The notes below the pieces were generated by a model. It did not search any database. It had not been told where the DNA came from and worked only from the letters and a program-made list of their open reading frames with translations. This document shows, one piece after another, positions 12,623-63,998 of a stretch of DNA of 64,000 nucleotides; position 1 is the stretch's first letter; each line of letters starts with the position of its first letter. Source of the stretch: Nitrospirales bacterium (GTDB lineage: Bacteria > Nitrospirota > Nitrospiria > Nitrospirales > UBA8639). Location: NCBI GenBank assembly GCA_963555755.3, contig OY820905.2:672001-736000 (forward strand). Reading direction: 5' to 3'. The position numbers and the translations under genes were made by a program.

Positions 12623-13367
12623 GGAGTAAATTTGATCTTTGCAATAGAAATATTGGGAATATTTACATCAATTGTTGCTGAGGTGTTGGGACTATTTGTC
12701 ATTTTAGTTCTTAAGCCTACAGTTCCCCTATTCGGCAACTTCACCAAGGTGCCTGGAAATGAGCTCCCCTTCACAATTTGACCACCATTAGAAAGTTGAT
12801 TAAAGAGCTTTTGCGCGTCATTAATGCCCCCAGATAGTACACGTATATTCTCCCGACTTCCGGCCTGCCCAAGTGCATTTCCCCCAGGCAACAATAAATT
12901 CTCAACTTTCGACCCAAAGCCCAGCACTATCCTTGCTTTTTGAATATTCCTACTAACAAAGTTCACAATTGGGCTAAATAGTTTTCCAACACCAGCCACA
13001 CCAACCGAGGCAGGCCCACCAGGAGTAAAGGTATTGACGTCCTCTGGTGAAGGGGACGGTCCTGGGGCTCGGAAGCCTGTCAGCACGGTGAAGTCATTAC
13101 CACCTTCTGAAGTCCCCCCCCAAGTAACCGATTGGCCTGCCCACCCAGACCAGTACCTCCTCCACCCTGAGAAGTATAACTCACGTTCTGCGTATTGGCG
13201 TTGGTCCCAGAATTTGATCGCGGGATCGTCCCCATCGGGTCGGTAAAGTTGACGGGATCCCCGCCCGCATAGGCGTAGAGGTTGGTACCGCCTTGGAGGC
13301 CAATCGGGTCGGGTTGCGTAAATCGCCCGGTTTCAGGATCGTAGTATCTCGCGCGGGAGTAAACCAC
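12619..13367 (-). pseudogene. Orphan Rhs C-terminal toxin module, frameshifted near 13085
   Basis: RARYYDPETGRFTQPDPIG...NLYAYAGGDPVNFTDPMG core end; toxin-like domain continues in another frame. Confidence 0.85.
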
Positions 13368-13707
13368 TCGGCCCTACGACTCGTCGCCGTACGTTGCCCA
13401 ATTTCCTCTATGCTTTCTTCCACTTAGCCGCCGTGTGGTCCTGAGCTCCTTCCTTCCAACAACTTTTTTGCCCAGACGCGCGTTTTCGCTGTGCGCTCGG
13501 CCTCCCTCTGTTGGTCACATCCTTGGTGTTGGTTGGTGATCACCGCCATGATCATGAATCCACTGCGGCGGCAGCTTAGCACACTTGTCACCGAAATTCT
13601 TCTTCCCTTTTTAGCTGCCAAGCGATGGTAGGCAATTGAGCACACCCATGCTATAAGTGTGCGAAGAGTACAGGATGATCGTTTTGCCGTTACGGACAAT
13701 TCCCTGA

Positions 13708-15839: not shown

Positions 15840-16319
15840 TCAAGTCTTGACCCCATACCCAACCTGACCCCTTACCTTTTTTGTAGCCTTTTTTAAGATT
15901 CCAAGAGTTTCAGCACGCTCTAACCAAATATCACTCACCTTCTTGTCTCGTTTGACACCAATTCCATAATAATAGCACCGACCAACCTCGTGCACAGATT
16001 GGTGGTCTCCATACAAAGCTGCACGGGTGTAATATTCAAAGGCCAATCGTTCGCTTTTTCTAATTCCTTCTCCTTTTTCGTAACAGATGGCCAGGTCATA
16101 CAGTGCATTTGCAACATTGTACCGCGCGGCTTCTTGAAGAAAAGCAACGGCCTTTCTTAAGTTTTTTCCTACATGTTGTCCAAATAAATACCAGGTTCCT
16201 AGGGCATAGGTGGCATCAGGATTCCCTTCAGCATGAGCTTTTTGTAAATACTGAAGAGCCTTTTGAGGATTAGGGGGCGTTTTCGTAATCTGCTTGAAAG
16301 CGGCTTTATAGTAATCCAT
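15840..16319 (-). CDS. Sel1-like repeat protein, putative immunity
   Basis: ATYALGTWYLFG, ALYDLAICYEKGEG, VGRCYYYGIGV repeats; directly downstream of an Rhs toxin. Confidence 0.85.
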   Translation of the reverse strand: MDYYKAAFKQITKTPPNPQKALQYLQKAHAEGNPDATYALGTWYLFGQHVGKNLRKAVAFLQEAARYNVANALYDLAICYEKGEGIRKSERLAFEYYTRAALYGDHQSVHEVGRCYYYGIGVKRDKKVSDIWLERAETLGILKKATKKVRGQVGYGVKT

Positions 16320-16382
16320 CTTAGATTTTCAAATTCCCAGTATTTGGAAAAAACATTTCATAAATCTCTTTATCAAAGATAG

Positions 16383-18035
16383 TTAACGCTTGGCAATTTG
16401 GTCACCAGGACTAGGGACGCCAGGGTAGTAAATCCCAGGAGCAAACATACAAGGATTGATAAAGATTGGACCCGGCGTCTTAATTTTTGGGCCTTTATTA
16501 GGCATTGGTGTTTTAGGTTTTGGTGAATCCTTAGGTGGCCAGGGGCCCTTGTGGTTCTGTGGCTTAATAGTATTCGGACGACGTCCTGGGTCTGCCTTTT
16601 CACCACCACGACTTTTCTTTTTATTTGCTTTGCCTTTTTCATGCTTTGGCACGTTAGCTGGATTCGTATTAGAATTGTGTTCCTTATAGGCTAGTTGTAC
16701 GGGGTTCTGCGTATCCTGTTGAGAACCTTGACCTTGTCCCCCATACCCCAGCCCACTCAGGCCTGTGCCCCCACTACCCTGAGACGTATAGCCGGTATTC
16801 TGTGCATTAGCATTAGCACTGGCTACGGACCACGGTGTGGTCCCCATGGGGTCGGTATAATTGGTAGGATTCCCTAATGCATAGGCATAAAGATTGGTGC
16901 CGCCTTGGAGCCCAATCGGATCAGCCTGCGTGAAGCGTCCCGTCTCCGGATCGTAGTATCTGGCGCGGTAGTACACTAATCCCGTGTCGTCGGGTTCTCT
17001 GCCTGTATATCCATACTGCGGCACGGTGCCGGTTTTGAGGGTGGGGTTGCCCCACGCATCGTAGCGGACTGTGCCTTGCGCTTCCCCTGTTTGGTCCGTC
17101 ACGGCCACGACACTGCCGAGGCCATCTTGATGATAATACTCGATGAGTCCACCGCCGATGCGGATGAGGGGGGTGTCAATCCCTGGGCCATGCACATATC
17201 TGGCGGTCGGCGTGGTTGTCCAGGTGCTGCCATATTCGGCGATGATATCGAGGCCATCGTAGAGGTAATGTCGCTCCGCGCCCCCAACGGTCTTTCTCAC
17301 ACGCCGCCCCAGATCATCGTAGCCATACGTCTCGGTATGCGCCCATGTCTTCTGCGTTTGCGTCACTTGGTCCCACGCGTTGTAGATCATCGAAAGGACT
17401 TCACCTGTGCCTGCCTTGCTCTCCATGTTCCCATTGAGATCATATTGAAAGCTGGAGAGGATAGGGCCGGCCTCCGTCCCTTGCCGAATCGTGGTGAGTT
17501 GATTGGCGGCATCGTAGAGATAGACTTCTGTGGTGCCACCAATGGTGCGACTCGTGCGATTCCTGAGGATGTCGTAGGTGTAATCGTCTTGGGTATTGGT
17601 GATCAAGCCACCCTCATCTTCATCGGTCAAGACTTGCGTCAGGCGATTGAGTTCATCGTACGCATAGGTTGAAGTCGTAACGGTACTACACGAGGGGTCA
17701 TTGTCAATGACCGTTTCCCGGTTGCCCAGTGTATCATAGGTGTAGTTTTGTTGCGCTAAAAGGGTGCCGCCGACCGTGCGATGGTCCACCTGATCAAGCG
17801 TGTTATCGACATTGTAGGTATAGCGCGTGTTGACGCCATTCGGGAGCCATTGTTCAGTAAGCCGTCCGCCGTCATCGTACACAAAGCTCACCAGTTCGCC
17901 TTGTCCGGCCCACAGGCCGTTTAAGCGCCCCACGGCATTGTAGAGATAATCCGTGCGGCTGACTTCGGTGAGACTGGCATCGAGTGCTTTGCGGCTGCGG
18001 ATGCGACCCCCGGGGGTGTAGTCAAACGTCAGGCT
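16383..18035 (-). pseudogene. 5'-truncated Rhs protein with Lys/Pro-rich C-terminal toxin domain
   Basis: YD repeats, GYTGRE, RARYYDPETGRF, NPTNYTDPMG; YD-like sequence runs up to the RAYT end at ~18036. Confidence 0.88.
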
Positions 18036-18138
18036 GTGATAGGGTCAGGCCTGCGTTATTGCAATAATCTAGTCCCTTCAATGACGATTGGATCATGGCC
18101 AGAAAACCATGACTTCATGTCCCGGGAGGGGTTTATCA
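18036..18138 (+). mobile_element. Second copy of RAYT left end and 5' coding start, cut by IS6
   Basis: Near-identical to 14881-14983, including the same in-frame TGA. Confidence 0.85.
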
Positions 18139-18941
18139 GGTATTGTCAACTTAACCCGCGTTTGGCAGACTGGGCAGCATGACAACCAAAAAGCCCAGCT
18201 GCCAACGCCATCGCTTTCCTTCCGAAATTATCAGTCATGCCGTTTGGCTCTACCATCGATTCTGCCTCAGTTTCCGTGAAGTCGAAGAACTCTTAGCTGA
18301 ACGTGGAGTCACGGTGACTTATGAAACCATTCGCCAGTGGTGTCAGAAATTTGGGCCTACATACGCACGCAAGCTCAAGAAACGACAAGGGCGTCTCGGT
18401 GATACGTGGCACATCGACGAAGTGTTTGTGACCATCCAAGGGGCCCGACACTATCTCTGGCGAGCCGTGGATCAAGACGGCGATACCATTGATATTCTCG
18501 TGCAGTGTCATCGTAACAAAAAAGCGGCGGAACGCTTCTTTCGCCGCTTACTGAAAGGCCAAGGCCGTGAGCCGCGCTGGATGATCACCGACAAACTCAA
18601 AAGCTACGGCGCCGCACACCGGGCCGTCATGCCGACCGTCGAGCATATCAATCGGTCTATGCGAATAACCGAGCGGAAGTGTCGCACGAACCGACCCGGC
18701 AACAAGAGTATCATATGCGAGGATTTTCTTCCTCGACTCAGGCTCAAAGATTTCTCACACTGCACGGACTCACACAGAATCTCTTTCGTCTCAGCCGCCA
18801 CCTGATGCAGGCGGTCAACTATCGGCTCTTACGTACTCAGGCGTTCCAAGTTTGGCAGGAAGCGGTATGCGCGTAAGAGACAATGCCATCGCTCGGCGAG
18901 CGCGTCCCAACTTGGCCGCAGCACCTTAAGTTGACAATACC
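18139..18941 (+). mobile_element. IS6-family element, transposase frameshifted near 18650
   Basis: Perfect TIR GGTATTGTCAACTTAA; RHRFPSEII, WHIDEVFV, YLWRAVDQDG motifs; ORF split 18179-18805 / 18679-18876; no TSD. Confidence 0.93.
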
Positions 18942-22848: not shown

Positions 22849-25800
22849 TCAACCAAAGACTTGACCCGTATCGGCTGTGCCGCCTACCGTCACATCGTCG
22901 GTGGCGAAGTCCGCGACCGATTCACTAAAGACCACGGTGAAGTTAATGGAACTGCCATTGGTCGGATCGCTTTGCCCGCCGGCTTGGTCAATCGTGACCG
23001 TGGGGCCGGTGGTATCCGTCGAGAAGGTGACGGTGTTATCCGTGGACGTCGAGGCACTATTGGCATTGCCCACACTATCGGTGGCGATATCCGCGCCAAT
23101 GGTAGCGATGACGAGGCCACCAGTGGTCATGCCTGTGACGGCCACGTTGTAGGTGGTGCCACTGCCGGTGACCGTGCCGGTGGTCGCCCCGGCTGTGCCG
23201 CCTACCGTCACATCGTCGGTGGCGAAGTCCGCGACCGATTCACTAAAGACCACGGTGAAGTTAATGGAACTGCCATTGGTCGGATCGAGTTGGCCCACCG
23301 CTTGGTCAATCGTGACCGTGGGGCCGGTGGTATCCGTCGAGAAGGTGACGGTGTTATCGAGAATGGTGGCGACACTGTTCGGGTTCCCGAGCCCATCGGT
23401 CGCGACGCCAGCCGCAATGTCGAGGACGACCGTTCCCGGGCCCGTCATATCACTGATCGCCACGTTGTAGGTGGTGCCACTGCCGGTGACCGTGCCGGTG
23501 GTCGCCCCGGCTGTGCCGCCTACTGTCACATCGCCGGTGGCGAAGTCCGCGACCGATTCACTAAAGACCACGGTGAAGTTAATGGAACTGCCATTGGTCG
23601 GATCGCTTTGCCCGCCGGCTTGGTCAATCGTGACCGTGGGGCCGGTGGTATCCGTCGAGAAGGTGACGGTGTTATCCGTGGACATCGAGGCACTGTTGGC
23701 ATTGCCCACACTATCGGTGGCGATATCCGCGCCAATGGTAGCGATGACGAGGCCACCAGTGGTCATGCCTGTGACGGCCACGTTGTAGGTGGTGCCACTG
23801 CCGGTGACCGTGCCGGTGGTCGCCCCGGCTGTGCCGCCTACCGTCACATCGTCGGTGGCGAAGTCCGCGACCGATTCACTAAAGACCACGGTGAAGTTAA
23901 TGGAACTGCCATTGGTCGGATCGCTTTGCCCGCCGGCTTGGTCAATCGTGACCGTGGGGCCGGTGGTATCCGTCGAGAAGGTGACGGTGTTATCGAGAAT
24001 GGTGGCGACACTGTTCGGGTTCCCGAGCCCATCGGTCGCGACGCCAGCCGCAATGTCGAGGACGACCGTTCCCGGGCCCGTCATATCACTGATCGCCACG
24101 TTGTAGGTGGTGCCACTGCCGGTGACCGTGCCGGTGGTCGCCCCGGCTGTGCCGCCTAATGTCACATCGTCGGTGGCGAAGTCCGCGACCGATTCACTAA
24201 AGACCACGGTGAAGTTAATGGAACTGCCATTGGTCGGATCGCTTTGCCCGCCGGCTTGGTCAATCGTGACCGTGGGGCCGGTGGTATCCGTCGAGAAGGT
24301 GACGGTGTTATCGAGAATGGTGGCGACACTGTTCGTGCCAGCCGCCGGGCCCGTCATATCACTGGTGCCACTGCCGGTGACCGTGCCGGTGGTCGCCCCG
24401 GCTGTGCCGCCTAATGTCACATCGTCGGTGGCCGGAACTGCCATTGGTCGGATCGCTTTGCCCGCCGGCTTGGTCAATGTGACCGTGGGACCGGTGGTAT
24501 CCGTCGAGAAGGTGACGGTGTTATCCGTGGACGTCGAGGCACTGTTGGCATTGCCCACACTATCGGTGGCGATATCCGCGCCAATGGTAGCGATGACGAG
24601 GCCACCAGTGGTCATGCCTGTGACGGCCACGTTGTAGGTGGTGCCACTGCCGGTGACCGTGCCGGTGGTCGCCCCGGCTGTGCCGCCTACCGTCACATCG
24701 TCGGTGGCGAAGTCCGCGACCGATTCACTAAAGACCACGGTGAAGTTAATGGAACTGCCATTGGTCGGATCGCTTTGCCCGCCGGCTTGGTCAATCGTGA
24801 CCGTGGGGCCGGTGGCGACACTGTTCGGGTTCCCGAGCCCATCGGTCGCGACGCCAGCCGCAATGTCGAGGACGACCGTTCCCGGGCCCGTCATATCACT
24901 GATCGCCACGTTGTAGCCACTGCCGGTGACCGTGCCCTGTGCCGCCTACCGATCGTCGGTGGCGAAGTCCGCGACCGATTCACTAAAGACCACGGTGAAG
25001 TTAATGGAACTGCCATTGGTCGGATCGCTTTGCCCGCCGGCTTGGTCAATCGTGACCGTGGGGCCGGTGGTATCCGGCGCAGTAGTGAAGGTGGCATCAA
25101 CGCTGGTTGCCAAATTGCCGGCGGCATCACTACTCAGAACACGAACGTGATACAGGGTGGAAGCGGTCAGCCCGGAGAGAGACACGCTATGGTTGGTCTC
25201 CAGAGTGCTATCGAGAGGAGTGACGTTACCGTACGCCGTGGTCAGCCCGTATTCTACCTGCGAATCGGCTGGCTCATTGGTGGTCCACGTAATTGTCGCA
25301 GTGGATTGAGTAAGACTTTGGCCAACCACTGGAGAAACCAGCGGAGGCAGCGTATCAGCGGTTGTAGTTGCGCTGGCTGTACCAGAGTAGGAACTGAAGT
25401 TGCCAGCAGCATCGATCGCCCGTACGCGATAGCTATAGCTTGTGTTAGTGAGCAGATCCGTATCGCTCATGGTCGTCCCTAAGGGTGTCGCAATCTGAGC
25501 GAAGTTTGAACAGCTTGCACCTTGGCACTGTTCTATTTCATATCCAGTCACACCAACATTATCATTGGATGCGGTCCAGGTTAGCGTGATTTGCGTACTG
25601 GTGACTATCGAAACCGTCAGCGTTGCTGGAGCCATTGGTGGTGTTGGATCAACAATGAGTGGCGGAGTAAAGCCGCTTAAATTTCCAGCAGCATCGCGAG
25701 CGCGCACTCGGTAGCGGTAGGTTGTATTCGCCATGACTCCAGAATCGCTAAAGGTTGTAGCAGTACTCGAGGTGGTTGCCCCAATTCCGGTAAAGTTGGC

Positions 25801-26445
25801 ACACACTGCGCCTTCACAACGTTCGACGAAATATCCTGTCACTCCAATAAGGTCAGTCGAGGGTGACCATGTTAAGTCAACTTGAGTTGGTGACACCAAC
25901 TGGTAGGCGAAGTTTTGCGGAACCGACGGGGCAGCTGTGTCGATGACTCCCCCTGTTGTCGTATTCACCACGTTAGAATATGGACTCTTTTTTCCGCCGA
26001 GATCTACAGACCGAACACGATAATGATAGAGGGTGCCACCGCTGAGACCGGAATCAAGAAACGTTATGGTCACAACAGATGAGTCAATGACACTAAACGA
26101 TCCATTGCCAATACTTTGCTCGACTTCGTAATGATCGAGCACACCATTTCCAGCCACCCACAGCAACATAATTGTTGTTGAATCCACGACGGTTGCTGAA
26201 AGGTTTAACGGCGTAGGTGGAGTAGGAGGCGGACAGTGATCGACTAAGTATAGGAAACCTTCCGAAGCAGCATGAAGGTTACGGTTCAAATTGAACTTGG
26301 GTTTTTTAGGAGGACACGGATCTGTCGATTTATGCGAAAGATGACCTTTCTCAGCGAAGACATTCGCTTCATGAGAGGAAGCAGATAGCGGGGCAAACGC
26401 AACCGCAATTCCAAGCAAAATGCTAATAATACACTGCTTCCTCAT
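22849..26445 (-). pseudogene. Secreted Fn3 + Ig-like repeat surface protein, frameshifted near 24930 and 3'-truncated
   Basis: Signal peptide; four Fn3-like domains (YRYRVRARDAAGN type); 106-aa T/G/D-rich repeats; ends at a junction motif. Confidence 0.85.
22870..25075. repeat. Tandem 318-bp repeats, alternating two variants
   Basis: Shadow ORFs recur at 23153, 23471, 23789, 24107; near-identical DNA. Confidence 0.92.
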
Positions 26446-26881: not shown

Positions 26882-27373
26882 TCATAAAGACCCGATAGTT
26901 AAATCCTTCAGCAAAACTTTTAACTCTGATAAATATGGCGATGAATTTAAAATAAAAAAAACCATAGGCGGTTTATGCTTTATATAATGTTCTGTAGGTT
27001 GAGCTGCATTTAAAGCAAACCATACAACTTCCTTTAACGAATCCTCTATTAGATCCGTTGTTAAAATATGACCATCTTCAGGTTCTTTTATGTTTTGATC
27101 GATTTCCCGTTCAACAATGGTTTCATCCACCCAATCATGCAACCTTTCTCCTCCATTCCCACCGCAAACAAAATAGCAGACCCCTTTATCTAATAACTCG
27201 TTAACAAACAGGTCCAATTCTTGTTCAATAGCCAACTCTTCCTTGGTGGCAAAAATCGTGGCTAGAAAATAGGGTTGGGGAAGATTTAAATCTTCCGGCA
27301 AACTTGAAAATTTTTCCAAAAAGACCAAGAAAAGGTTTTGGCTCACACTTTTCCACACTTCATGAGTTCCCAT
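26882..27373 (-). CDS. Putative immunity protein
   Basis: Acidic, AT-rich; TAATG overlap with Rhs stop. Confidence 0.75.
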   Translation of the reverse strand: MGTHEVWKSVSQNLFLVFLEKFSSLPEDLNLPQPYFLATIFATKEELAIEQELDLFVNELLDKGVCYFVCGGNGGERLHDWVDETIVEREIDQNIKEPEDGHILTTDLIEDSLKEVVWFALNAAQPTEHYIKHKPPMVFFILNSSPYLSELKVLLKDLTIGSL

Positions 27374-28890
27374 TATTTTTTATAAACCTGTTGGAGCATA
27401 TTTGTATTAGGTTTATTCGGATAAATTACAAAACCTCCAGCGGAAGCATTGAATACATCTGCGAAGGCAGGATCAATATTAAAACTAAAAGAAGGTTGGG
27501 TATCAGGTACTTCCGGGTTTGAATTATTGAAATCAGATGGTGGGTTGACTGGAGTATCACCAGGCACTGAAAGTATAAGCCCTAATACAATTAGGAACCT
27601 GTTTCCAACACTAAAAAATAAATCGAAAAAACCTTGACCATCCAACGATTTAAGAGAATTGATTTGGTTTTGATAATCATTAATACTGTGAGTCAACCCT
27701 TTGATTCTACCGTCTATTATTGATTGCCTTCGAATCAGGTTATCACCTGCCCTCTGTAAGTGACCTTTATTATCATGTGCATCTGGATTTTTCTTATAAG
27801 CCTTCAATCTTTCAATATGTATATCTCTTATATTACTTAATCCCTTGATCTTATCTAGTTGGTTTCTTGTTAATTTTGAACCCAAACCCAGATATTTACT
27901 TAAGGCATCCAGCGGAGATTGACCTGTGGGATCCCGCAAATTTATGGGGTTATTATTTACATACGCATAAAAGTTCACCCCTTCGCTGAACCCCAACGTA
28001 TCTTCCGTGAGAAACCGGCCTAACCCTGGATCATAATGCCTCGCCCGATAATAATAGAGTCCACTTTCAGTATCCCGCTCCCGACCAGTATAGCGAAGAA
28101 CTGAACAGCTTGCTCCAGCTCCGCCGATTTCATCCCCGAAGGGAGCATACTGGGTTGTTTGGATGGTTGCCCCCTCATGTCCCGAAAGACCCACGACAGA
28201 CTGCAGCGAATCATGCGCATACGTATAATTGGTCCAGACGCCTTGCGGATCGTATTGATACCCATTGACGATTTCATCAATCACGACCCCTCGAAAGAAC
28301 TGTGCTGGTTGATGGCTCCCAGTGACCTTTTCTACATGCTCCCCTTCGAGAAGATAGTCCGCAGCCACCCCAGGCCCTGCCTTACTAATTCGGTAATCCA
28401 TTGGATCGTACGAATAGGTAAAGAGCTCTCCGCCCGTGATCATTTGTGTGATACGGCCTTTGGCATCGGTGCTGTAACTATGTAGTAGAGTGCCTAATCC
28501 ATCCCAACGTTCAGTCATATTTCCATCATCATCATAGCTAAACTGATTTTCCAAGGGTCCGGTTACGCTGCCATCTCGAATTTCCAGCAGACGATTCCCT
28601 TCGTTATAGATGTAGAACTGGGTCGTCGTGTCTACTGTTTGGGTCAGACGATTTCCTACTCCATCGTAGGTGTAGTTATAGGTATTCCCCGCACCTGGAT
28701 AGACGGCATCGGTGAGGCGGTACAGGGGATCGTAGGTAAACGTCGTTGTCCCTTCGCTGCTGCTATTGGTGAGAATGTTGCCGATGCGGTCTCGCGTATA
28801 GCTTTCCTCACCCACCACACTTCCATTCGCATGCTCGGTCGTCAGACTTACCAGCCGGTTATTGTCGTCATAGCCATAGGACGTTGTGGT
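27373..28890 (-). pseudogene. Orphan Rhs module with basic helical toxin domain and conserved YPNKPN tail
   Basis: Core homologous to the 31755 gene up to ~28890; NNPINLRDPTG then unique domain. Confidence 0.88.
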
Positions 28891-29030
28891 TTTTCTCTCC
28901 TATTCGATTGAAACGAAAATATTTCTATGGAAAGTTTTTTCTTTAAATTACCTTTCGATGAATAAGTACCTTTTCGCCATAACCTTGATCCGAAACGCAT
29001 TCGGTCATTCTGTAATTAAGATGAGCGAAA

Positions 29031-29492
29031 TCACCTAATTTCTTCTTTCAAATAACCTACAAACTTTTCGAATTCTTTTTTCGGACCTGGTAAAAACGTT
29101 CTCATCGTTATCGTAATGTGACAAGGAAATTCCTTTTGTGAAATAAGAATCTGCACTTCATGGAAACATCTATACTTCGTGGTCACTGAAACACTGGTAA
29201 TGGCCCCTCTCTCGACTTTTTGAAAATAGGTTAAATAGGTTTTTCCGATAATCAGAAAACTATTGGTAACAGCGAATTTATATAAAAACGCATTAAATTC
29301 TCGAACAATTTCCTCTTGGACTCTGAATCCCTTAAAACAATTACTCCGCAAACTTCCCACCGGAATAACCATCAGTGGTTTTTCGTTTAACTCTGAAAAT
29401 TTTGGGTGCCCAAGCACAATCCGATTGTATCCCCCAATATAATAATGATCGAAGACAATCAAACAAATCCCAAGAACGAAAATCAGATCCAA
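29031..29492 (-). CDS. Putative immunity protein with N-terminal hydrophobic segment
   Basis: AT-rich; AGGAGG RBS; directly downstream of Rhs. Confidence 0.65.
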   Translation of the reverse strand: MDLIFVLGICLIVFDHYYIGGYNRIVLGHPKFSELNEKPLMVIPVGSLRSNCFKGFRVQEEIVREFNAFLYKFAVTNSFLIIGKTYLTYFQKVERGAITSVSVTTKYRCFHEVQILISQKEFPCHITITMRTFLPGPKKEFEKFVGYLKEEIR

Positions 29493-29546
29493 TCTCCAAC
29501 TCCTCCTTTTACAATTTCCTAGGGCTCATCCATCAAAGTTTCTGTT

Positions 29547-31301
29547 TTATTTAGAATATACACTTTGCAACGTATTCACATTGGGTTTATTGGGATACAG
29601 CAGAAACCCACCAGATGCTCCAGAAACTGAGCTGCTAGACGATAGACCGAAAAAATTTTGCACACCTTCTATTGCATTGTTAAATGAGTTAACTGCGTCC
29701 CCTATTACCGTACTCCGAAAAAGCGGGGTGCCTGTTGTTTGAGTTATACCAGCCTCGAAACCAGGAGTACTTCGAGATAAACCGAACTCAGTAAAGAAAG
29801 GTTCGCCGGGCCCGGAGGTGTCCGGGAAAGACACAGCACCACCAACACCTATACCCGATTTACCCGTAAAAGACCCACTCATAGAAACCCCAGGCCCCTC
29901 TAAATTACTTAAAGTTGCATCTTCACTTCCTATGAGGACGTTACCAAAAATACCCAGAGATCCGATCCCTGTACTTTTCCCTAATCCGCGTTCAGTCTGC
30001 AGAACCGCCGAAATTTCTAGGGTATCTATATCAATCGCTAATATAATACTTGCAGCTCCTTTCCCGCCAGGTGCTGTCCTGCCGGGATCGAGAACACCTG
30101 AAACACCCACATTGACCCCGACCGGTTCTAACCCTCTCGGGTCATTAGCATTAATCGGATTATTCCCGACATACGCATAAAAATTTGCATCACCCGCACC
30201 AAATCCTAATGGGTCTTCGGTGATAAACCTTCCGAGCTCAGGATCATAATACCGTGCCCGGTAGTAGTAGAGCCCACTCTCCGCATCTCGTTCCCGCCCC
30301 GTATATCTTAAGACCGAGCAACTGGCGCCTGCGCCATCGATCTCCTCACCGAAAGGGCTATATTGAGTCGTCTGGATCGTCGCACCTTCATGCCCGGAGA
30401 GGCCGACCACCGACTGCAGTGAATCATGTGCATAGGTGTAATTGGTCCAGACGCCCTGCGGATCGTATTGATACCCATTGACGATTTCATCTATCACCAC
30501 GCCACGAAAGAACTGGGCGGGTTGATGACTCCCTGTCACCTTTTCTACATGTTCACCTTCGAGGAGATACTCCGCAGCCACGCCCGGCCCTAATTTACTG
30601 ATGCGATAATCAAAAGGGTCATAGGCATAGGTGAAGGGCTGTCCGCCCGTTGTCATCTGCGTGATACGTCCCTTGGCATCAGTACCATTACTTTGTAGAA
30701 GAGTGCCTAATCCATCCCGACGTTCAGTCATATTTCCATCATCGTCATAGCTAAACTGATTTACCAAGGGTCCGGTTACGCTGCCATCTCGGATTTCCAG
30801 CAGACGATTCCCTTCGTTATAGATGTAGGCTTGGGTGGTTGTGTCTATTGTTTGGGTCAGGCGATTGCCTACTCCATCGTATGTGTAGTTATAGGTATTC
30901 CCCGCCCTTGGATAGACAGCATCGGTGAGGCGGTACAGGGGATCGTAGGTAAACATCGTCGTGCCCTCGCTGGTCGTCACCGTTTGGATATTTCCTACAC
31001 GATCCCGGGCATACGTTTGCTCGCCCACGACACTTCCATTGGCATGCTCGCTCTTTAAACTCACCAAGCGATTGTTGTCATCATAGCCATAGGATGTGGT
31101 GGTCCCATTCGAGAGTATTCGCGTCAGCAACCGGCCTGCGGGGTCATACTGATACCACACTTCGACGTAGTCGGGATTGCGCATGCTAACTAGGCGATTG
31201 GCACTATCGTAACGATAGTCCGTGACCGCACCTTGATAGTCGGTCTTGGTCAGGATATTGCTCATCGGATTTCTCACCATTCTCCTTGTGACATGTGCCA
31301 T
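29547..31301 (-). pseudogene. Orphan Rhs module with G/S-rich C-terminal domain and YPNKPN tail
   Basis: Core homology starts near 31265 (NILTKTDYQG); NNPINANDPRG. Confidence 0.88.
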
Positions 31302-31414
31302 TCCCTGATTGACGCACAGTTACGCATAGTGCACCTCATTAACTCTTCTAAACTCACCAGCCCTAGCTCTTGGGCTTTTTTCATAAAAAAGGTTCCTGAC
31401 ACTTTTTTCTTTCC

Positions 31415-31741
31415 CTATTTCTTCTTTAAAACACTTCCTCCCATGTGTCTGTCAATAAATTCATCACTAACCAGATCCAATTTTTTTATCATTTTTTCCC
31501 ACAGCATTACGCCAAAGCCCACACCAACAGCCGCACCAATGATGAAAAAGAAGAAGGCAATTTTCACATCTATATTACTTACTTCATCCAGAAAAATGGG
31601 ATCCAGTGATCCATGCTTCACTAGAAAAAATAAAGCCCCTATTCCTGTTGCACCCAACATCCCCAAAACGGATATAAACACCACCAATAAAAATGATGCC
31701 AAAAACTTTCGTGTTCGGGAATCCTTCAATCGACCAGGCAT
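31415..31741 (-). CDS. Putative two-TM immunity protein
   Basis: Start reassigned to ATG 31741 (GGAG RBS just after the Rhs stop); two hydrophobic helices. Confidence 0.72.
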   Translation of the reverse strand: MPGRLKDSRTRKFLASFLLVVFISVLGMLGATGIGALFFLVKHGSLDPIFLDEVSNIDVKIAFFFFIIGAAVGVGFGVMLWEKMIKKLDLVSDEFIDRHMGGSVLKKK

Positions 31742-31754
31742 ACACTCCAATTTC

Positions 31755-34384
31755 CTATTTCGAATACACCGCTTGTAGCATATTGAGGTTTGGTTTGTTT
31801 GGATATAATAAGAAACCTCCAGCAGCATTGGAGAGACTGGGGCCCTGATCTAAGCGTGGTAGATCAAAATTAAAGCGAGCGTTTGAAAGGGGTCCAGCAA
31901 GTCCTAAGGGTACGACAGGCAAATTGCTGAGCGTATCCCCTACAAACCCTCCTGCTAAATCAAGTCCTGAAGAAAGAACTCCTTGCGCAGTTCCTCCTGC
32001 TATAACACCCAAGGCCCTACTGCCTGTGGCAGCAACCACAGGGCCAAAAATTCCGGATACAGAGAGCGGTGCAGAAAGGGTAGAAGTCACTGCAGAGGAT
32101 AGACTAAAATTATCAAAGACATTGATTGGCTGATTATTTCTGACATCGGTAATAGCATTACCGGCAAACTGCCCAGCCACGTTTCCAGATAGACCGAGGA
32201 TAAAATTCGCTGCAATCGAACCAAAACGGTTTGACAACGCCGGGTTATTGCTAAAGAATCCAGTCACAGCCCCAACTACCCCTCCTACGCCTCCTCCGAT
32301 AACCCCCTCGACGACACTCTCATTCTTGGCAAAACCCGTAACCGCACCACCGACCAAACCGGAAAAGAACCCTATAGCAGCTCCTGGAGCATTAACTTTC
32401 CCACTCGGATCATTCGCATTAATCGGGTTATTCCCAACATACGCATAAAAATTCACATCGCCTGCACCAAACCCCAATGGATCTTCGGTAAGGAACCGCC
32501 CAATTGATGGATCGTAGTAACGCGCTCGATAGTAGTAGAGCCCAGTCTCTGCATCGCGCTCGCGCCCCGTGTAACGCAGCACTGAACAGCTCGCACCGGC
32601 CCCATCACGCTCACTCCCAAAGGGCGCATACTGCGTCGTTTGGATTGTTGCTCCCTCGTGTCCCGAGAGTCCAACAACCGATCGCAGCGAATCATGGGCG
32701 TAGGTGTAGTTGGTCCACACGCCCTGTGGGTCGTACTGATAGCCATTCACGATTTCATCGACCACGACGCCCCGGAAAAACTGTGCCGGTTGGTGGCTCC
32801 CCGTCACCTTTTCAACATGCTCTCCTTCGAGAAGATAGTCCGCCGTGACGCCTGGGCCGGCTTTGCTAATGCGGTAATCCATGGGGTCGTAGGCATAAGT
32901 AAAGAGATCTCCGCCGGTGATCATTTGCGTGATGCGGCCTTTGGCATCGGTGGTGTAACTTTGCAGGAGTGTGCCGATACCATCACGGCGCTCGCTCATG
33001 TTGCCTTCATCGTCGAAATTAAACTGATTCACTAAGGGACCGGTGACGCTCCCATCTCGAATTTCGAGTAGCCGATTCCCTTCGTTATAGATGTAGGCTT
33101 GGGTAGTGGTACCTATGATTTGGGTGAGGCGATTGCCGACTTTGTCGTATGTGTAGTTATAGGTATTTCCAGCGCCTGGATAGACCGCATCGGCCAGGCG
33201 ATACAGAGGATCGTAGGTAAACATTGTCGTGCCTTCGCTAGTTGTGACCGTTTGGATATTTCCTACACGATCCCGAATGTAGGTCTCCTCCCCCACAACA
33301 CTGCCACTGGCATGGTCGGTCTTCAGACTTACCAGCCGGTTATTGTCGTCATAGCCATAGGACGTTGTGGTCCCATTCGACAGTATTCGCGTCAGCAACC
33401 GGCCAGCAGGATCATACTGATACGATACTTCGACGTAGTCGGGATTGCGCATGCTGACTAAACGATTGGCGCTATCGTAACGATAGTCCGTTATAGCCCC
33501 CTGGTAATCGGTCTTGGTTGACACGTTACCGACTTGATCATAGGTGTACTGTAACGAGTTGGTAATTACGGACGGTGGACGATTATCCATCTTGGTCGTC
33601 ACTCGATGCTTCGTATCGTAGGCAAAGGTATAGGTGACGTCGTCATTTTTCACCATAATTCGGTCGCCAAAGTGATCGTAGGCAAAATCTTCTTGGTAGG
33701 TCACATTTCCACTCACTAGATATTCTGCCTTCACAACACGATTCAGATCGTCGTAGGTGAAACGTGCGACTTCATCTTTGCGATTTGTCCGCGTCAGGAC
33801 ATTCCCGGCCTGGTCATAGGTTAACGTTGTTACTTTATCGGTGGGTGTCTCGATCAAAGGATCGGTCATCGTGACCAGCCGACCAAGATCGTCAAAAGTA
33901 AATATTGTGCTTCGGCCTTCTGCATCAGTCACGGATGTACGATTCCCTAACAAATCATAATCAAATAGCGTGTCACCGTTGAGGGCATTGCGCTCTAGGA
34001 TTACTCTGTTTAATTCGTCGTATTGCCGAGAGAGTGTGGCGCCATCATTATTAATTGGCTGGAGTGCAGCCGTCGCGTTCGCATCCGTCAGACTGATAAG
34101 GTTTCCATTACCATCGAAAGCCTGTTCCGTTTCAAACCCCAATGGATCTGTCGTTTTGATGTGACGACCCAGGTTATCGTAGCCGAATTGGGTGATTTCC
34201 CCATTAGGATCAATGGTCTTAATTTTTCGACCAGCAAGATCATACGCCGATTCCACTCGATGTCCTGTGGCATTGATGACTACCGTTCTTCTTCCCATCG
34301 CATCATATTCAAATCGCGTGATATGGCCATTGGCATCAGTTATTTCAATGAGATTCCCGGCTTCGTCATGGCGAAACTGTGTTG
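31755..34384 (-). pseudogene. Rhs protein, 5'-truncated by IS1380, with G/A-rich hydrophobic domain and YPNKPN tail
   Basis: YD repeats stay in frame to the IS end (TQFRHDEAGNLIEITDANG); NNPINANDPSG. Confidence 0.9.
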
Positions 34385-35971
34385 CCCAAGATCCGCGATG
34401 GATTTATTTTGGGCATAAAAAAACCTCGTTGATTTGCTAAGATACGGGTGCCCACCCACTTAGCCACTCCTCACCAACGAGGTGAAACGAATGATGCCAC
34501 AAACCGTTCTTCCGTTCAAGCTTGAGCCCACCGACGAACAGCTCACCGCTCATGGCGGGCTGGCGCTGTTCGGGGAGTTTCTCCAAGCCATGAATGTGCC
34601 CCGGCAACTCAATGCGGCCTTGCCCGCGCCCGGGAGCCGCATCGGCTATCACCCCGCCCAATTTGTCGAGCCCCTGCTGCTGATGTTGCATGGCGGGGGC
34701 CGGACGCTGGAGGATCTGCGCCAGATTCGCGAGGATGCGGGCTTGCGGGCCGTGCTGCGACTCCCCGTGGTTCCCAGTGCCGATGCCACGGGCGATTGGC
34801 TGCGACGCATGGGGGAGAAGGATGGTTTAGCAAGTTTAGCCGTCGTCAATCAGCAGCAGATCCGGCGGGCGTTGAAGCGGGAACCGCGCACGGACTATAC
34901 CCTCGATCTTGATGCCACGCAGATTGTCGCGGAGAAGCAGGCAGCCAAATGGACGTACAAGGGGGAGCGAGGCTATCTGCCGATGCTGGGGCACCTGGCG
35001 GAAAATGGGCTGGTGCTTGGGGAGGAGTTTCGTGAAGGGAATGAGGCTCCGGCGTCCCGCAATCTTGAATTCACCCAGGCGTGTGCGGCGCAGATGCCCA
35101 AAGGCAAACGGATTGCTCATGTGCGGGCGGATAGTGCGGCGTACCAAGCGGAGTTGTTCAATTGGTGCGAGGAGCACAACGTGACGTTTGCGATTGGGGG
35201 CGTGCAGGATACGGCCGTGCAGGCCGCCATTGCCGCCATCCCTGAGAGCCAGTGGCAACCCTACCGAGATGGCCATCTCGCTGAAACGGTACATTGTATG
35301 GCGAAGACCAAGCAAGCCTTTCGCCTCATCGTGTTGCGACGGCCCGTGCAACAGGATCTGTTTGCCCCCGAGGCCCCCAGCCTGCGCTACACGCTGATTG
35401 CGACGAACCGAGACGGAACCCCTGAGGAGATTGTACGATGGTACAACCAGCGGGGCGAGACCAGCGAGAATCGCATCAAAGAACTGAAGAGTGGCTTTGG
35501 CATGGAACGGCTTCCGTGTGGGACCTTCGCGGCCAATGCCGTCTTCTTTCGCATTGGCGTGTTAGCCTACAACCTGTTTGTGTTGTTCAAGTTGTTGGCG
35601 TTGCCCTATGCCTGGAGCCAGTGCCAAGTGCGCACGGTGCGTTGGCGGCTGTATCAGGTGGCGGGCAAAGTGGTCCGGCATGCTGGTGCCGTGATCCTCA
35701 AAGTGCAACAACAGCTGTGGGGCTTGTGTGAGGAGATTCGGACGCGCTGTGCAGAAGCTGCCCAGCCTTATTAAGCCGGGGCAGGGGACAGCACAAGAGA
35801 AGAAGGAAGCAGGAAGGGAGTGGTCTGCCCAAAAGGCTGGTCGATCCCATGTCAGGACAGGCAACTCTGGGAGGTGGCTCAAATCCAGCCAGACCATTGA
35901 CTAAGCAACGGCGCGAACACGTGGGTTTTGCCAAAGGACCTCTGTTGACCAAACCCATCGCGGATCTTGGG
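34385..35971 (+). mobile_element. IS1380-family element, apparently intact transposase 34482-35774
   Basis: TIR CCCAAGATCCGCGATGG; LTAHGGL, LDLDAT, VRADSA, YNQRG.SENRIKELK motifs; no TSD. Confidence 0.92.
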
Positions 35972-36218: not shown

Positions 36219-36426
36219 GCCGCAAGAATACGCGACACGGGTACTGTTGTTCAGTCTTTATTTATGGGGAAAGGGCAGGGCTAGCCTCACTCCACCAAAA
36301 TTGTGATTGATCCAAAGAAAGCTGCTGTCCAGGAACGTCTGGAAAAACTGGAATATATCGTGGTTGCGAATATACAGCAGGCACAAAAACTTCCAGACGT
36401 GTTCTTCCCTGAAAAAAGTGGTGTGG

Positions 36427-62975: not shown

Positions 62976-63998
62976 TCAGGGGCTACCGGTATGCACGACG
63001 TCACCATGACGAGCGGCTTCGCGGGCTTCCATATTGGCCAACCTGGTGGCCAACGCTTGCAAATGCTCATACTGTCGTTGCACCAAGGTCAGGAGGGACT
63101 GAAGCTGTTCAAGTTGTTCCGCCTGGGCTTGCATCGTCGACTCTTGCGCAAGATTCTTATCCGATTCAACTTCAAGTTTCCCGTGTTGTTTCTTCAGTTC
63201 ATTCAGCAGAATCGCGATGAGCTTAAAATACTGCACGGTTTCCACTTGCCCGTCCTTGCCATACACCACCAACTCAGGAAACACCTTCGCCACTTCTTCG
63301 GCAATGAGTCCAAATTGAATCGGTTGCGACCCATCAGCCGACGGTTGCTTGTATCGAAACGTCACCGGCCGTAAGGCAAGAAGTTTCTCGCTAATCCCAT
63401 TCATATCCTGGATGTCTTCTTTGTAGCGTTGAGAAGAAGACACCGTTCCAAGTTGTCCTTGGGAATCAATTACCACATCCGCCACCCCCGTGGTTGTGCC
63501 ACGGATGCCAGCGATAAAGGCATGGTCATGGATAGACCCATCCCCGATCCGGATCGTGTTATCTTCACCCGCAACTCCGTCGTGGTTCATATAAATATTG
63601 TCACTGCCAGTCGTCTGGTTAATTCCCGCTGCTTCCCCAATATAAAAATTGCCATCGCCACTGGTTTGGTTCATCCCTGCCGCTCGCCCAATATACGTAT
63701 TGTCATCGCCGCTGCTCTGGAGTTGTCCCGCCGCCTGACCAACGGCTGTGTTGCTACTACCTTGATTATTGAGAAGTGAAAGTCCTCCAACACCGGAATT
63801 CTGACTTCCTGAAACATTATTCAGGAGTGACCGGTTGCCCAGGGCCGTATTGGCAGCACTTCCCACATTCGAATTCAGAGACAAATTTCCCATAGCCGTA
63901 TTGAAACTGCCGGTATTTCGGATCAGTTGCAATTTTGGTGGAGTTGGGGGTAAACGGTGAGGGGAAGAAAGGAGGGAGCATGACCGGATGGACACCAC
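62976..63998 (-). CDS. Tail-fibre-like repeat protein with peptidase S74 chaperone domain; 5' end uncertain
   Basis: NTA.G repeats, SSQRYKEDI, LRPVTFRYK, GLIAEEV, C-terminal coiled coil. Confidence 0.82.
   Translation of the reverse strand: MVSIRSCSLLSSPHRLPPTPPKLQLIRNTGSFNTAMGNLSLNSNVGSAANTALGNRSLLNNVSGSQNSGVGGLSLLNNQGSSNTAVGQAAGQLQSSGDDNTYIGRAAGMNQTSGDGNFYIGEAAGINQTTGSDNIYMNHDGVAGEDNTIRIGDGSIHDHAFIAGIRGTTTGVADVVIDSQGQLGTVSSSQRYKEDIQDMNGISEKLLALRPVTFRYKQPSADGSQPIQFGLIAEEVAKVFPELVVYGKDGQVETVQYFKLIAILLNELKKQHGKLEVESDKNLAQESTMQAQAEQLEQLQSLLTLVQRQYEHLQALATRLANMEAREAARHGDVVHTGSP

Follow-up and report, generated by a model that had tools for sequence, protein, structure and literature searches.

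The window (the whole stretch of 64,000 nucleotides from a Nitrospirales bacterium that was analysed) carries three rhs open reading frames (ORFs) on the minus strand, each of which ends in a 22-residue peptide directly before its stop codon (Table 1). This basic and aromatic tail has the sequence GGFxxYPNKPNxNxLQxVYxK with the start AxGG[FY]V, and the three C-termini read as quoted in the preliminary description. PF05593 and TIGR03696 score above cut-off in all three ORFs, whose tailed ends lie 214, 194 and 182 amino acids past PxxxxDPxG (ORFs 1, 2 and 3, respectively). The variable regions that follow this motif do not match one another, as had been claimed, and none of the three has a match in Pfam. 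Judged by its composition, variable region 1 is likely to be a membrane-acting toxin plus a spacer, and variable region 3 continues for roughly 88 residues beyond its P0270-like domain. A small ORF, unrelated in each case, lies 3′ of every cassette and is by position a candidate immunity gene.

Table 1 Positions of the tailed rhs cassettes and their neighbours in the window
Feature	Position	Strand	Remarks
IS1380-family element	34385..35971	+	DDE_Tnp_1_4 transposase at 34482-35774; sits exactly where Rhs homology begins
Main rhs gene, decapitated	31755..34385	-	ORF from 34298, 847 aa; YD repeats, core, variable region, tail
DPSG of PxxxxDPxG autocleavage motif, cassette 1	32400..32411	-	Cleavage presumed from known Rhs
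Variable region 1	31824..32399	-	Gly/Ala-rich, hydrophobic; no family match
Tail 1, 22 codons	31758..31823	-	
Candidate immunity gene 1	31415..31741	-	Two predicted membrane helices; putative role, from position
Orphan rhs cassette 2	29547..31301	-	584 aa, starts within core; DPRG at 30132-30143
Variable region 2	29616..30131	-	36-38% identity to tailed proteins P0011, P0084, P0242
Tail 2, 22 codons	29550..29615	-	
Candidate immunity gene 2	29031..29492	-	No family match
Orphan rhs cassette 3	27373..28890	-	ORF from 28818, 481 aa; DPTG at 27922-27933
Variable region 3	27442..27921	-	Resembles (40% over 77 aa) the terminal domain of P0270, an untailed Rhs
Tail 3, 22 codons	27376..27441	-	
Candidate immunity gene 3 (DUF7684)	26882..27373	-	Start overlaps cassette 3 stop

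The main ORF, which had been taken to end at 31830 but extends to 34385, is the 3′ third of a gene for about 2400 amino acids that is interrupted at this point by the IS1380-family element. Six further copies of the element occur in the genome (at least 99.6% identity), and the remaining two thirds of the main rhs gene, on its 5′ side, were not found there. Thus, the earlier count of three Rhs proteins holds for three tailed ORFs but not for whole proteins, as an IS-cut gene is accompanied by two orphan cassettes whose reading frames start within the core. This core is the long homology that the cassettes share (78–80% over about 1 kb). The main ORF is 85% identical to residues 1505–2169 of the full-length protein P0001, and because of this identity in the core we provisionally assign a transglutaminase N-terminus to the gene in the window.

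A hidden Markov model (HMM) of the tail, run in six frames over the 4.6-Mb genome, finds the three window sites at 52–54 bits (the HMM was built including them) and nothing else above 12 bits. The tail is missing at the 8 other Rhs core ends of the genome, its exact pattern has no match in 40 relatives of this genome, and the partner genes of the tailed ORFs were not found in the genome. The delivery system is likely to be dead in this organism, and the cassettes in the window would chiefly provide a reserve of immunity genes. The stretch is covered in 30 of 30 bins by contigs of two run sets (X1 and X5, with different study codes, one of which may be the source), and coverage by RNA run X11 is limited to two short pieces of the core and the IS element.

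The codons for YPNKPN differ at synonymous sites, as had been noted, and the three tails in the window share 44–48 of 66 bases in pairwise comparison, with pN values of 0.10–0.25 and pS values of 0.63–1.10. Across 54 tails, pN is 0.21 versus a pS of 0.88. By this measure, selection acts on the tail peptide, as the preliminary description proposed in preference to a DNA repeat.

Of the 150 best matches (536 in all), 149 have the tail at their very C-terminus; the matches come from several phyla, between which the tail is near-identical. All 36 matches longer than 260 amino acids carry the Rhs core. As an independent test of linkage, we picked 100 complete homologs by their N-terminal 900 amino acids alone; 86 are tailed at 20 bits or more, 9 carry a visibly worn tail, two have a tail that is barely recognizable and three have none. 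Tail-less proteins include P0076 and P0110, and the protein of locus L107 also lacks it. The tail is thus terminal, linked to Rhs and confined to a single N-terminal architecture and operon, which bears out the proposal that such proteins are an Rhs subclass of their own in which the variable domain is internal. In these proteins the toxin is not the last domain, and a spacer of 28–109 amino acids (10 cases) precedes the tail. Grouping of 160 variable regions yields 83 clusters, and the domains before the tail in relatives include WHH, GH-E, GHH/Tox-GHH, REase-7, Ntox44, Tox-PL-2, C92, M15 and peptidases. One relative locus (L036) carries Imm8.

The tail does not correspond to a characterized domain in Pfam or NCBIfam, where 0 of 54 tails match any model (31-residue queries, which have little power), and the same holds for NCBIfam at an E value of 0.1 with CTERM sorting signals included. 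No hydrophobic or membrane helix lies over the tail, which has no match in viral contigs or in the PDB (best E value 0.08). No published account of the tail or its operon was found among the openly accessible papers that were searched.

Intact relatives carry, from N to C terminus, a signal peptide (judged by eye), a transglutaminase-fold domain without its cysteine, a middle region of about 550 amino acids, the junction AxGG[YW]V, a DUF6531/YD cage, DPxG, a variable toxin, the spacer and the tail. The transglutaminase domain matches PF01841 in full-length relatives and the fold of 3isr (Z 11.3, rmsd 2.5, 136 residues aligned), and Asp replaces the transglutaminase Cys in 99% of 93 relatives. 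The tailed clade lies behind genes for a squalene-cyclase-like toroid protein with leucine-rich repeats (LRR), found upstream in 32 of 35 loci, and for a secreted protein of about 230 amino acids, here called B, found upstream in 44 of 48. Protein B has no Pfam or NCBIfam family, no PDB match below an E value of 0.02 and a best Atlas match of 0.77. The toroid protein often carries IPTL-CTERM (above cut-off in L011 and L012), and an exosortase gene lies further upstream in some loci (three above the XrtM cut-off, one above that of XrtH). The xrtM gene beside a YD-repeat gene scores above cut-off in L069, L070 and L085, and such a gene also occurs in L108 and L109.

Toroid, LRR and B are all present in the three tailed-clade loci profiled, B or LRR in none of 27 sister-clade loci and the tail in none of 13 complete sister-clade proteins. 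Within a single genome (G226), two of five xrtM cassettes are tailed, and the same two have B. The co-occurrence of tail, B and LRR counts as one evolutionary event, because essentially one clade supports it. On these sequence comparisons, the tail marks one widespread clade of Rhs toxins with a signal peptide and an inactive transglutaminase. A specific tie between XrtM and the tail was rejected, as 22 of 201 genomes have XrtM but only 4 have the tail, and XrtM also flanks untailed Rhs.

The start of the tail, AxGG[FY]V, matches the junction before the cage, for which the consensus is NAxGG[YW]V. The end of the signal peptide coincides exactly with A|GG[YH]V in 13 split rhs genes. Neither a GG-aromatic junction nor the Cys-to-Asp change needs the tail, because both occur in untailed clades; the same Asp in untailed L111, L115 and L116 led us to discard the idea that it is a lysine-binding adaptation to the tail. 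A role of the tail as a transglutaminase Gln donor was likewise dropped, with Gln in only 33 of 54 tails, and the one covariation signal, between tail position 5 and residue 559 (z 7), did not hold up in a tree-aware test with independent pairs (median p 0.625). Tail variants do track the scaffold tree and not the toxin: position 11 requires 24 changes versus 37.6 when shuffled, with 0 of 300 shuffles as low. The toxin cluster is shared with the nearest scaffold neighbour in only 4 of 88 cases, and the scaffold-tree signal could stem from swaps among close kin only. Structure prediction of core plus tail, as had been suggested, succeeded for the cage but not for the tail: given the last 1200 amino acids, AlphaFold folded the cage and left toxin and tail unplaced (pLDDT about 20–25; the N-terminal cage cap lies outside the model).

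An invariant C-terminal element behind a swappable toxin is also a feature of the XVIPCD of Xanthomonas type IV secretion system (T4SS) effectors and of the type IX secretion system (T9SS) C-terminal domain, although these are folded domains of 70–120 amino acids on non-caged proteins, unlike the 22-residue tail. The XrtM cassettes (TIGR04300) and XrtH/IPTL-CTERM (TIGR04177, TIGR04174) are similar in that exosortase genes adjoin tailed Rhs loci; however, XrtM cassettes serve tailed and untailed clades alike, and the tail itself is not a CTERM signal. The comment on the XrtM model reportedly describes cassettes that adjoin large YD-repeat proteins and that have no known sorting signal. The set of tail, B and LRR is a subset that lies outside every model scanned.

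The predicted cage shares the cage and cork fold (Z 17–18) and PxxxxDPxG with Rhs effectors of type VI secretion systems (T6SS), namely RhsA, Tse5, Rhs1 and RhsP (7q97, 8cp6, 7pq5, 8h8a). Model residue 913–914 aligns with residue 48 of Tse5, the site at which Tse5 is reportedly cut, and with residue 305 of RhsA. The latter is the N-terminal cut site of RhsA (PMC8765631, available part). In contrast to T6SS Rhs proteins, tailed Rhs have a signal peptide, a transglutaminase-like N-terminus and a non-terminal toxin, and no PAAR or VgrG domain was found in 8 full-length or near-full-length proteins or in the precomputed domains of 120 homologs.

Rhs toxins of this kind are listed under Sec/type II secretion system export by Zhang et al. 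2012 (PMC3482391, available part), whose inactive-transglutaminase proteins have in common with ours a signal peptide, a transglutaminase fold minus a catalytic residue, RHS repeats and a variable toxin. There the toxin is C-terminal, and the same part of the text describes neither a conserved tail nor an exosortase, a toroid+LRR anchor or protein B; the words ‘exosortase’ and ‘PEP-CTERM’ are absent from that part. Bacterial teneurin-like proteins, according to the available part of PMC13018210, are surface-associated YD cages with a signal peptide and two self-cuts, although their N-terminal domains (FN-plug, NHL) differ from those of tailed Rhs. In BiTLP the freed C-terminal domain may stay disulfide-linked to the N-terminal fragment (PMC13018210, same part), which is the closest functional parallel to a tether, but there a cysteine pair forms the link and not a conserved terminal peptide as in tailed Rhs.

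The preliminary description listed an export or loading signal, a shell plug, a release handle and a target-entry motif as possible roles of the tail, and the evidence favours a handle that is read by the scaffold of the producer. Any role of the repeated tail as a DNA feature, such as a recombination anchor or scar or a signal that couples immunity genes, is already largely refuted and hardly credible. Tandem copies within one locus would suit it, but synonymous sites are saturated even among tails of one locus (pS 0.34–1.10), all three stop codons are in use after tails, DNA behind the stop is 26% identical, which is the chance level, and the long homology that could drive swaps is the core. 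Export across the outer membrane by a C-terminal signal of the T9SS or Xanthomonas T4SS type, or recognition as an exosortase substrate, would agree with the strictly terminal position and with the exosortase genes upstream in some loci. This reading is very improbable, as N-terminal signal peptides are already present, the tail would be enclosed in the cage at the time of export, it has neither a membrane helix nor a match to a sorting-signal model, IPTL-CTERM sits on the toroid protein instead, and the distribution of XrtM departs from that of the tail.

That the tail promotes target entry by binding a victim-cell receptor or translocon is quite improbable. The tail does remain on the released fragment, behind a flexible spacer and with a basic and aromatic character, but the same tail follows nucleases that act in the cytoplasm as well as enzymes that act on the envelope (VanY/M15, SLT, peptidases). 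Receptor-binding parts usually diversify, whereas the tail varies little across phyla and its variants follow the scaffold of the producer. An internal anchor or plug, by which the cleaved toxin would be stowed on the inner wall of the cage or on the N-terminal cork until opening, is unlikely, although it also fits the scaffold tracking. The stretch after DPxG measures 166–247 amino acids (median 211) in 99 of 100 proteins, a restriction to be expected from a cavity of limited size (PMC13018210, available part), and the seal peptide and anchor helix of RhsA have such a role (PMC8765631, available part). However, a plug leaves the match to the junction motif and the co-occurrence with B and LRR unexplained, and the model left the tail unplaced, which is a weak point against it given that the cap is outside the model.

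We put at about one in two the probability that the delivery scaffold of the producer grips the tail as a handle after toxin cleavage. If this model is correct, the parts would leave by Sec, and exosortase would anchor the toroid protein at the surface, where the toroid would hold B, the N-terminal domain and the cage. Self-cleavage at DPxG would release toxin, spacer and tail within the cage. The tail, as a copy of the junction, would then be bound by a junction-reading site that the N-terminal domain provides, B acting as co-factor, and might be cut there after Ax. The inactive transglutaminases of these toxins have been proposed to bind peptides (Zhang et al. 2012, PMC3482391, available part). 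The toxin would be pulled out C-terminus first and then passed to the target, and modules of toxin, tail and immunity gene would be exchanged through recombination in the core.

These results bear on the surface retention of Sec-exported Rhs toxins in Gram-negative bacteria and on the exit of cargo from a closed cage. The clade supplies a small list of parts (one 22-residue peptide, three partner proteins and an exosortase), and untailed sister systems, which in some cases share a genome with tailed ones, provide a natural negative control. Cultured hosts that are non-pathogenic are among the named records (L022, L030 and L033). Taken together, these features make the release step directly testable. 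The clade is also an exception to the rule that Rhs proteins end in their toxin, which is relevant to toxin mining from C-termini alone. More tentatively, the tailed loci may encode a dedicated delivery pathway independent of T6SS and contact-dependent inhibition (CDI), in which an exosortase-anchored toroid+LRR protein, the adaptor B and a pseudo-transglutaminase would hold a surface Rhs cage and extract any cargo, starting at its C-terminus, by means of a universal handle of 22 residues in imitation of the junction. If so, the handle would be a portable tag to load and release cargo of about 180 amino acids.

Three minus-strand ORFs of the window end, as the preliminary description had read them, in a 22-residue peptide resembling GGFxxYPNKPNxNxLQxVYxK (the tail). 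Each carries RHS repeats and an Rhs core above cut-off in a family-model scan, and their core DNA is 78–80% alike across about 1 kb. The regions following DPxG, the autocleavage motif at the core end (214, 194 and 182 aa in ORFs 1–3), match only in the last 22 residues, in agreement with the proposal of unrelated toxin regions sharing a common end. The variable domain of ORF 3 corresponds to the last domain of an untailed Rhs protein, P0270 (40% over 77 aa), and about 88 residues come behind it in the window cassette. Directly after each tailed ORF lies a small unrelated ORF, by analogy in the usual position of an immunity gene.

Features of the window discussed in the text
Feature	Position	Strand	Remarks
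Rhs ORF 1	31755-34298	-	ends in tail; main-gene remnant
Rhs ORF 2	29547-31301	-	ends in tail
Rhs ORF 3	27373-28818	-	ends in tail
Signal-peptide FN3 + Big_12 repeat adhesin	22849-26445	-	split over two frames near 24910-24946
Second Rhs-family cassette	15840-18805		34% to the tailed one; without tail
Another Rhs core fragment	13221-13370		
Short element	36247-36322		further copies occur in the genome; loose contig ends are numerous in four runs
Peptidase_S74 (endosialidase chaperone) ORF	62976-63998	-	adjoins glycosyltransferase and methyltransferase genes

ORF 1 is, by sequence comparison, the remnant of a long gene. It is 85% identical to the full-length homologue P0001 (2,368 aa), and the homology begins at 34385, the exact start of an IS1380-family element of 1,587 bases. 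Neither a counterpart of P0001 residues 1–1504 nor the partner genes of the tailed clade were found in the window's 99%-complete genome, and the tail is absent from all eight other Rhs core ends of that genome. The window's tailed system is likely a disabled remnant. Elsewhere in the window, the adhesin ends just ahead of an Rhs core fragment (about 22760), an arrangement suggestive of a larger adhesin–Rhs gene that has collapsed. The second Rhs-family cassette has a Sel1-repeat gene behind it and an IS240-like transposase at its border, and the short repeated element may be one end of a further mobile element.

The tail is real and general. When 185,579 genomes were scanned with a degenerate pattern, 54 distinct matches came from outside the window's genome; nine, which lack the second half of the motif, were set aside by eye as chance, and the other 45 stop 20–27 residues past the first matched Gly. 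These sit on 35 contigs (Pseudomonadota 19, delta-group phyla 9, Nitrospinota 4, Bacteroidota 2 and Bacillota 1, small metagenome-assembled contigs possibly being misbinned). A tail profile searched against 1.84 billion representatives yielded 536 matches at E 0.001 or better. Among the best 150 of these, 149 are terminal within three residues, and the Rhs core is present in 36 of 36 matches longer than 260 aa, core or DPxG in 27 of 48 of 150–260 aa, and the core in 2 of the 66 below 150 aa, whose length is insufficient for it. That the peptide is terminal and Rhs-linked is thereby borne out, and the tail matches nothing in Pfam, NCBIfam or PDB that would make it an already characterised domain. 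The domains preceding it include WHH, GH-E, Tox-GHH, REase-7, Ntox44, Tox-PL-2, C92, M15/VanY, SLT and M10; most match no family. The toxin-to-tail spacer spans 28–109 aa (10 cases).

Synonymous codon differences had been taken to indicate selection on the peptide, and a set of 54 tails supports this, with a mean pN of 0.21 against a pS of 0.88 (crude, saturated counts). Codons vary even for the invariant residues (Y, P, N, Y, K and one G), all three stop codons occur behind the tail, and the 42 bases 3′ of the stop are 26% identical. That the tail is a mere DNA scar is therefore very improbable. Because this set was gathered partly by peptide pattern, independent sets were used in addition.

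For one such set the first 900 residues served as query and returned 132 homologues, of which 120 were listed and 100 are complete to the core. Among these listed matches, the tail scores at least 20 bits in 86 of the 100, which ties it to a specific N-terminal architecture; nine have a worn tail, two a barely recognisable one and three none, one of the three being cut short. Post-core length is 166–247 in 99 of the 100. Full-length members (about 2,200–2,900 aa) run from a signal peptide (judged by eye) through a transglutaminase-like domain, a middle region in which a PGGLLID...SSLEHExWQE block is invariant, DUF6531, YD cage, DPxG, toxin and spacer to the tail. An AlphaFold model (mean pLDDT 75.7) bears out the transglutaminase fold (3isr Z 11.3), with the catalytic Cys position occupied by Asp in 99% of tailed-clade domains, and His (97%) and Asp (89%) kept. 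The proteins correspond to the inactive-transglutaminase class of Zhang et al. 2012 (PMC3482391).

A conserved operon accompanies this clade. In 54 metagenome loci chosen by N-terminus, some near-duplicates, 19 of 20 closed core ORFs end in the tail. A gene for B, a helical secreted protein of about 230 aa with a PTxxxxxxHR end in most cases, lies upstream of rhs in 44 of 48 loci having enough flank, and a gene for a squalene-cyclase-like toroid protein with LRR in 32 of 35, the profiles being derived from the same loci in which they were counted. The toroid protein has an IPTL-CTERM-like end in 17 loci; in L011 and L012 the IPTL-CTERM model scores above cut-off. Exosortases make up 8 of 26 upstream ORFs picked by eye, three passing the XrtM cut-off and one that of XrtH. 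Fusion of the toroid protein and B into single ORFs (L099:401-2410 and L101:3005-4903) suggests that the two work together. A probable membrane protein of 200–240 aa usually follows xrtM (L066, L069, L070, L073, L084, L085 and L108–L124), with no NCBIfam match in the seven tested.

Sister clades of transglutaminase-Rhs provide natural controls. Within one bacterial family the tail occurs in 4 and XrtM in 22 of 201 genomes; one genome, G226, has five xrtM cassettes, each adjoining an Rhs gene of the same broad type, and the two with the tail are the two with B. Among 32 fetched loci, the three that belong to the tailed clade, each scoring at least 397 bits for transglutaminase, all have toroid, LRR and B. 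The link of the tail with B and LRR comes down to one clade. The 27 sister-clade loci (163 bits or less) show neither B nor LRR, and the tail is absent from their 13 complete main proteins and seven orphan cassettes; the remaining two loci lack a transglutaminase domain in the fetched stretch. No space for B is left in L110, L112 and L114, where the toroid gene directly adjoins rhs and the spacer precedes a terminal toxin. Post-core length in these untailed loci (201–228 aa) is similar to that of the tailed clade, and L110 and L114 share a stretch immediately behind DPxG that might be the tail's N-terminal counterpart. A third cassette type (L111:13391-14038, L115:13138-13737 and L116:18170-18718) has as its upstream anchor, in place of a toroid, a protein of about 200 aa that combines a single YD repeat and acidic DxDxD repeats with an IPTL-like end. 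On a plasmid (L145, NZ_CP123898.1), a sister-clade transglutaminase-Rhs gene adjoins a cluster of type II secretion genes, which may provide a route across the outer membrane.

A motif just before the cage of the tailed clade, NAxGG[YW]V, has the same pattern as the tail start, AxGG[FY][VL], with x similarly distributed in the two; sister clades have GG-aromatic junctions of a looser kind. In 13 naturally split genes (five further rows were left out as frameshift or contig fragments), the signal peptide of the rhs half stops exactly at A|GG[YH]V. The mature cage chain thus likely starts at GG[YW]V, where fused forms would likely be cut or bound. The split N-terminal genes L063:6690-9482 and L072:5450-8353 retain their own AGGGYV and a short unrelated end, and the gene after each begins signal peptide|GGYV.

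Tail variants also track the scaffold, that is, the transglutaminase and cage part. On a FastTree tree of these columns (88 rows), tail positions 9, 11 and 5 change 20, 24 and 13 times, against 25.9, 37.6 and 19.9 in shuffles. Only 4 of the 88 rows share their toxin cluster with the nearest scaffold neighbour, and at equal scaffold distance a common toxin hardly reduces tail distance. Swaps confined to close kin could also produce this tracking. A candidate covariation of tail with scaffold was a single outlier and failed a tree-aware test. We consider the best mechanism to be a handle read by the producer's own scaffold, with a probability of about one half. A tail serving as an internal plug is unlikely, and AlphaFold, run with the cage's C-terminal part, left the tail unplaced. 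Still less probable is a target-entry motif, and an export signal is slightly more doubtful again. All cleavage steps are proposed by analogy with RhsA (PMC8765631) and BiTLP (PMC13018210).

No description of the feature was found in the openly accessible literature searched. The distinct Rhs subclass first suggested by the window's three ORFs is recovered as an inactive-transglutaminase Rhs clade in which the toxin is internal, the protein ends in the 22-aa peptide and the accessory operon is conserved.
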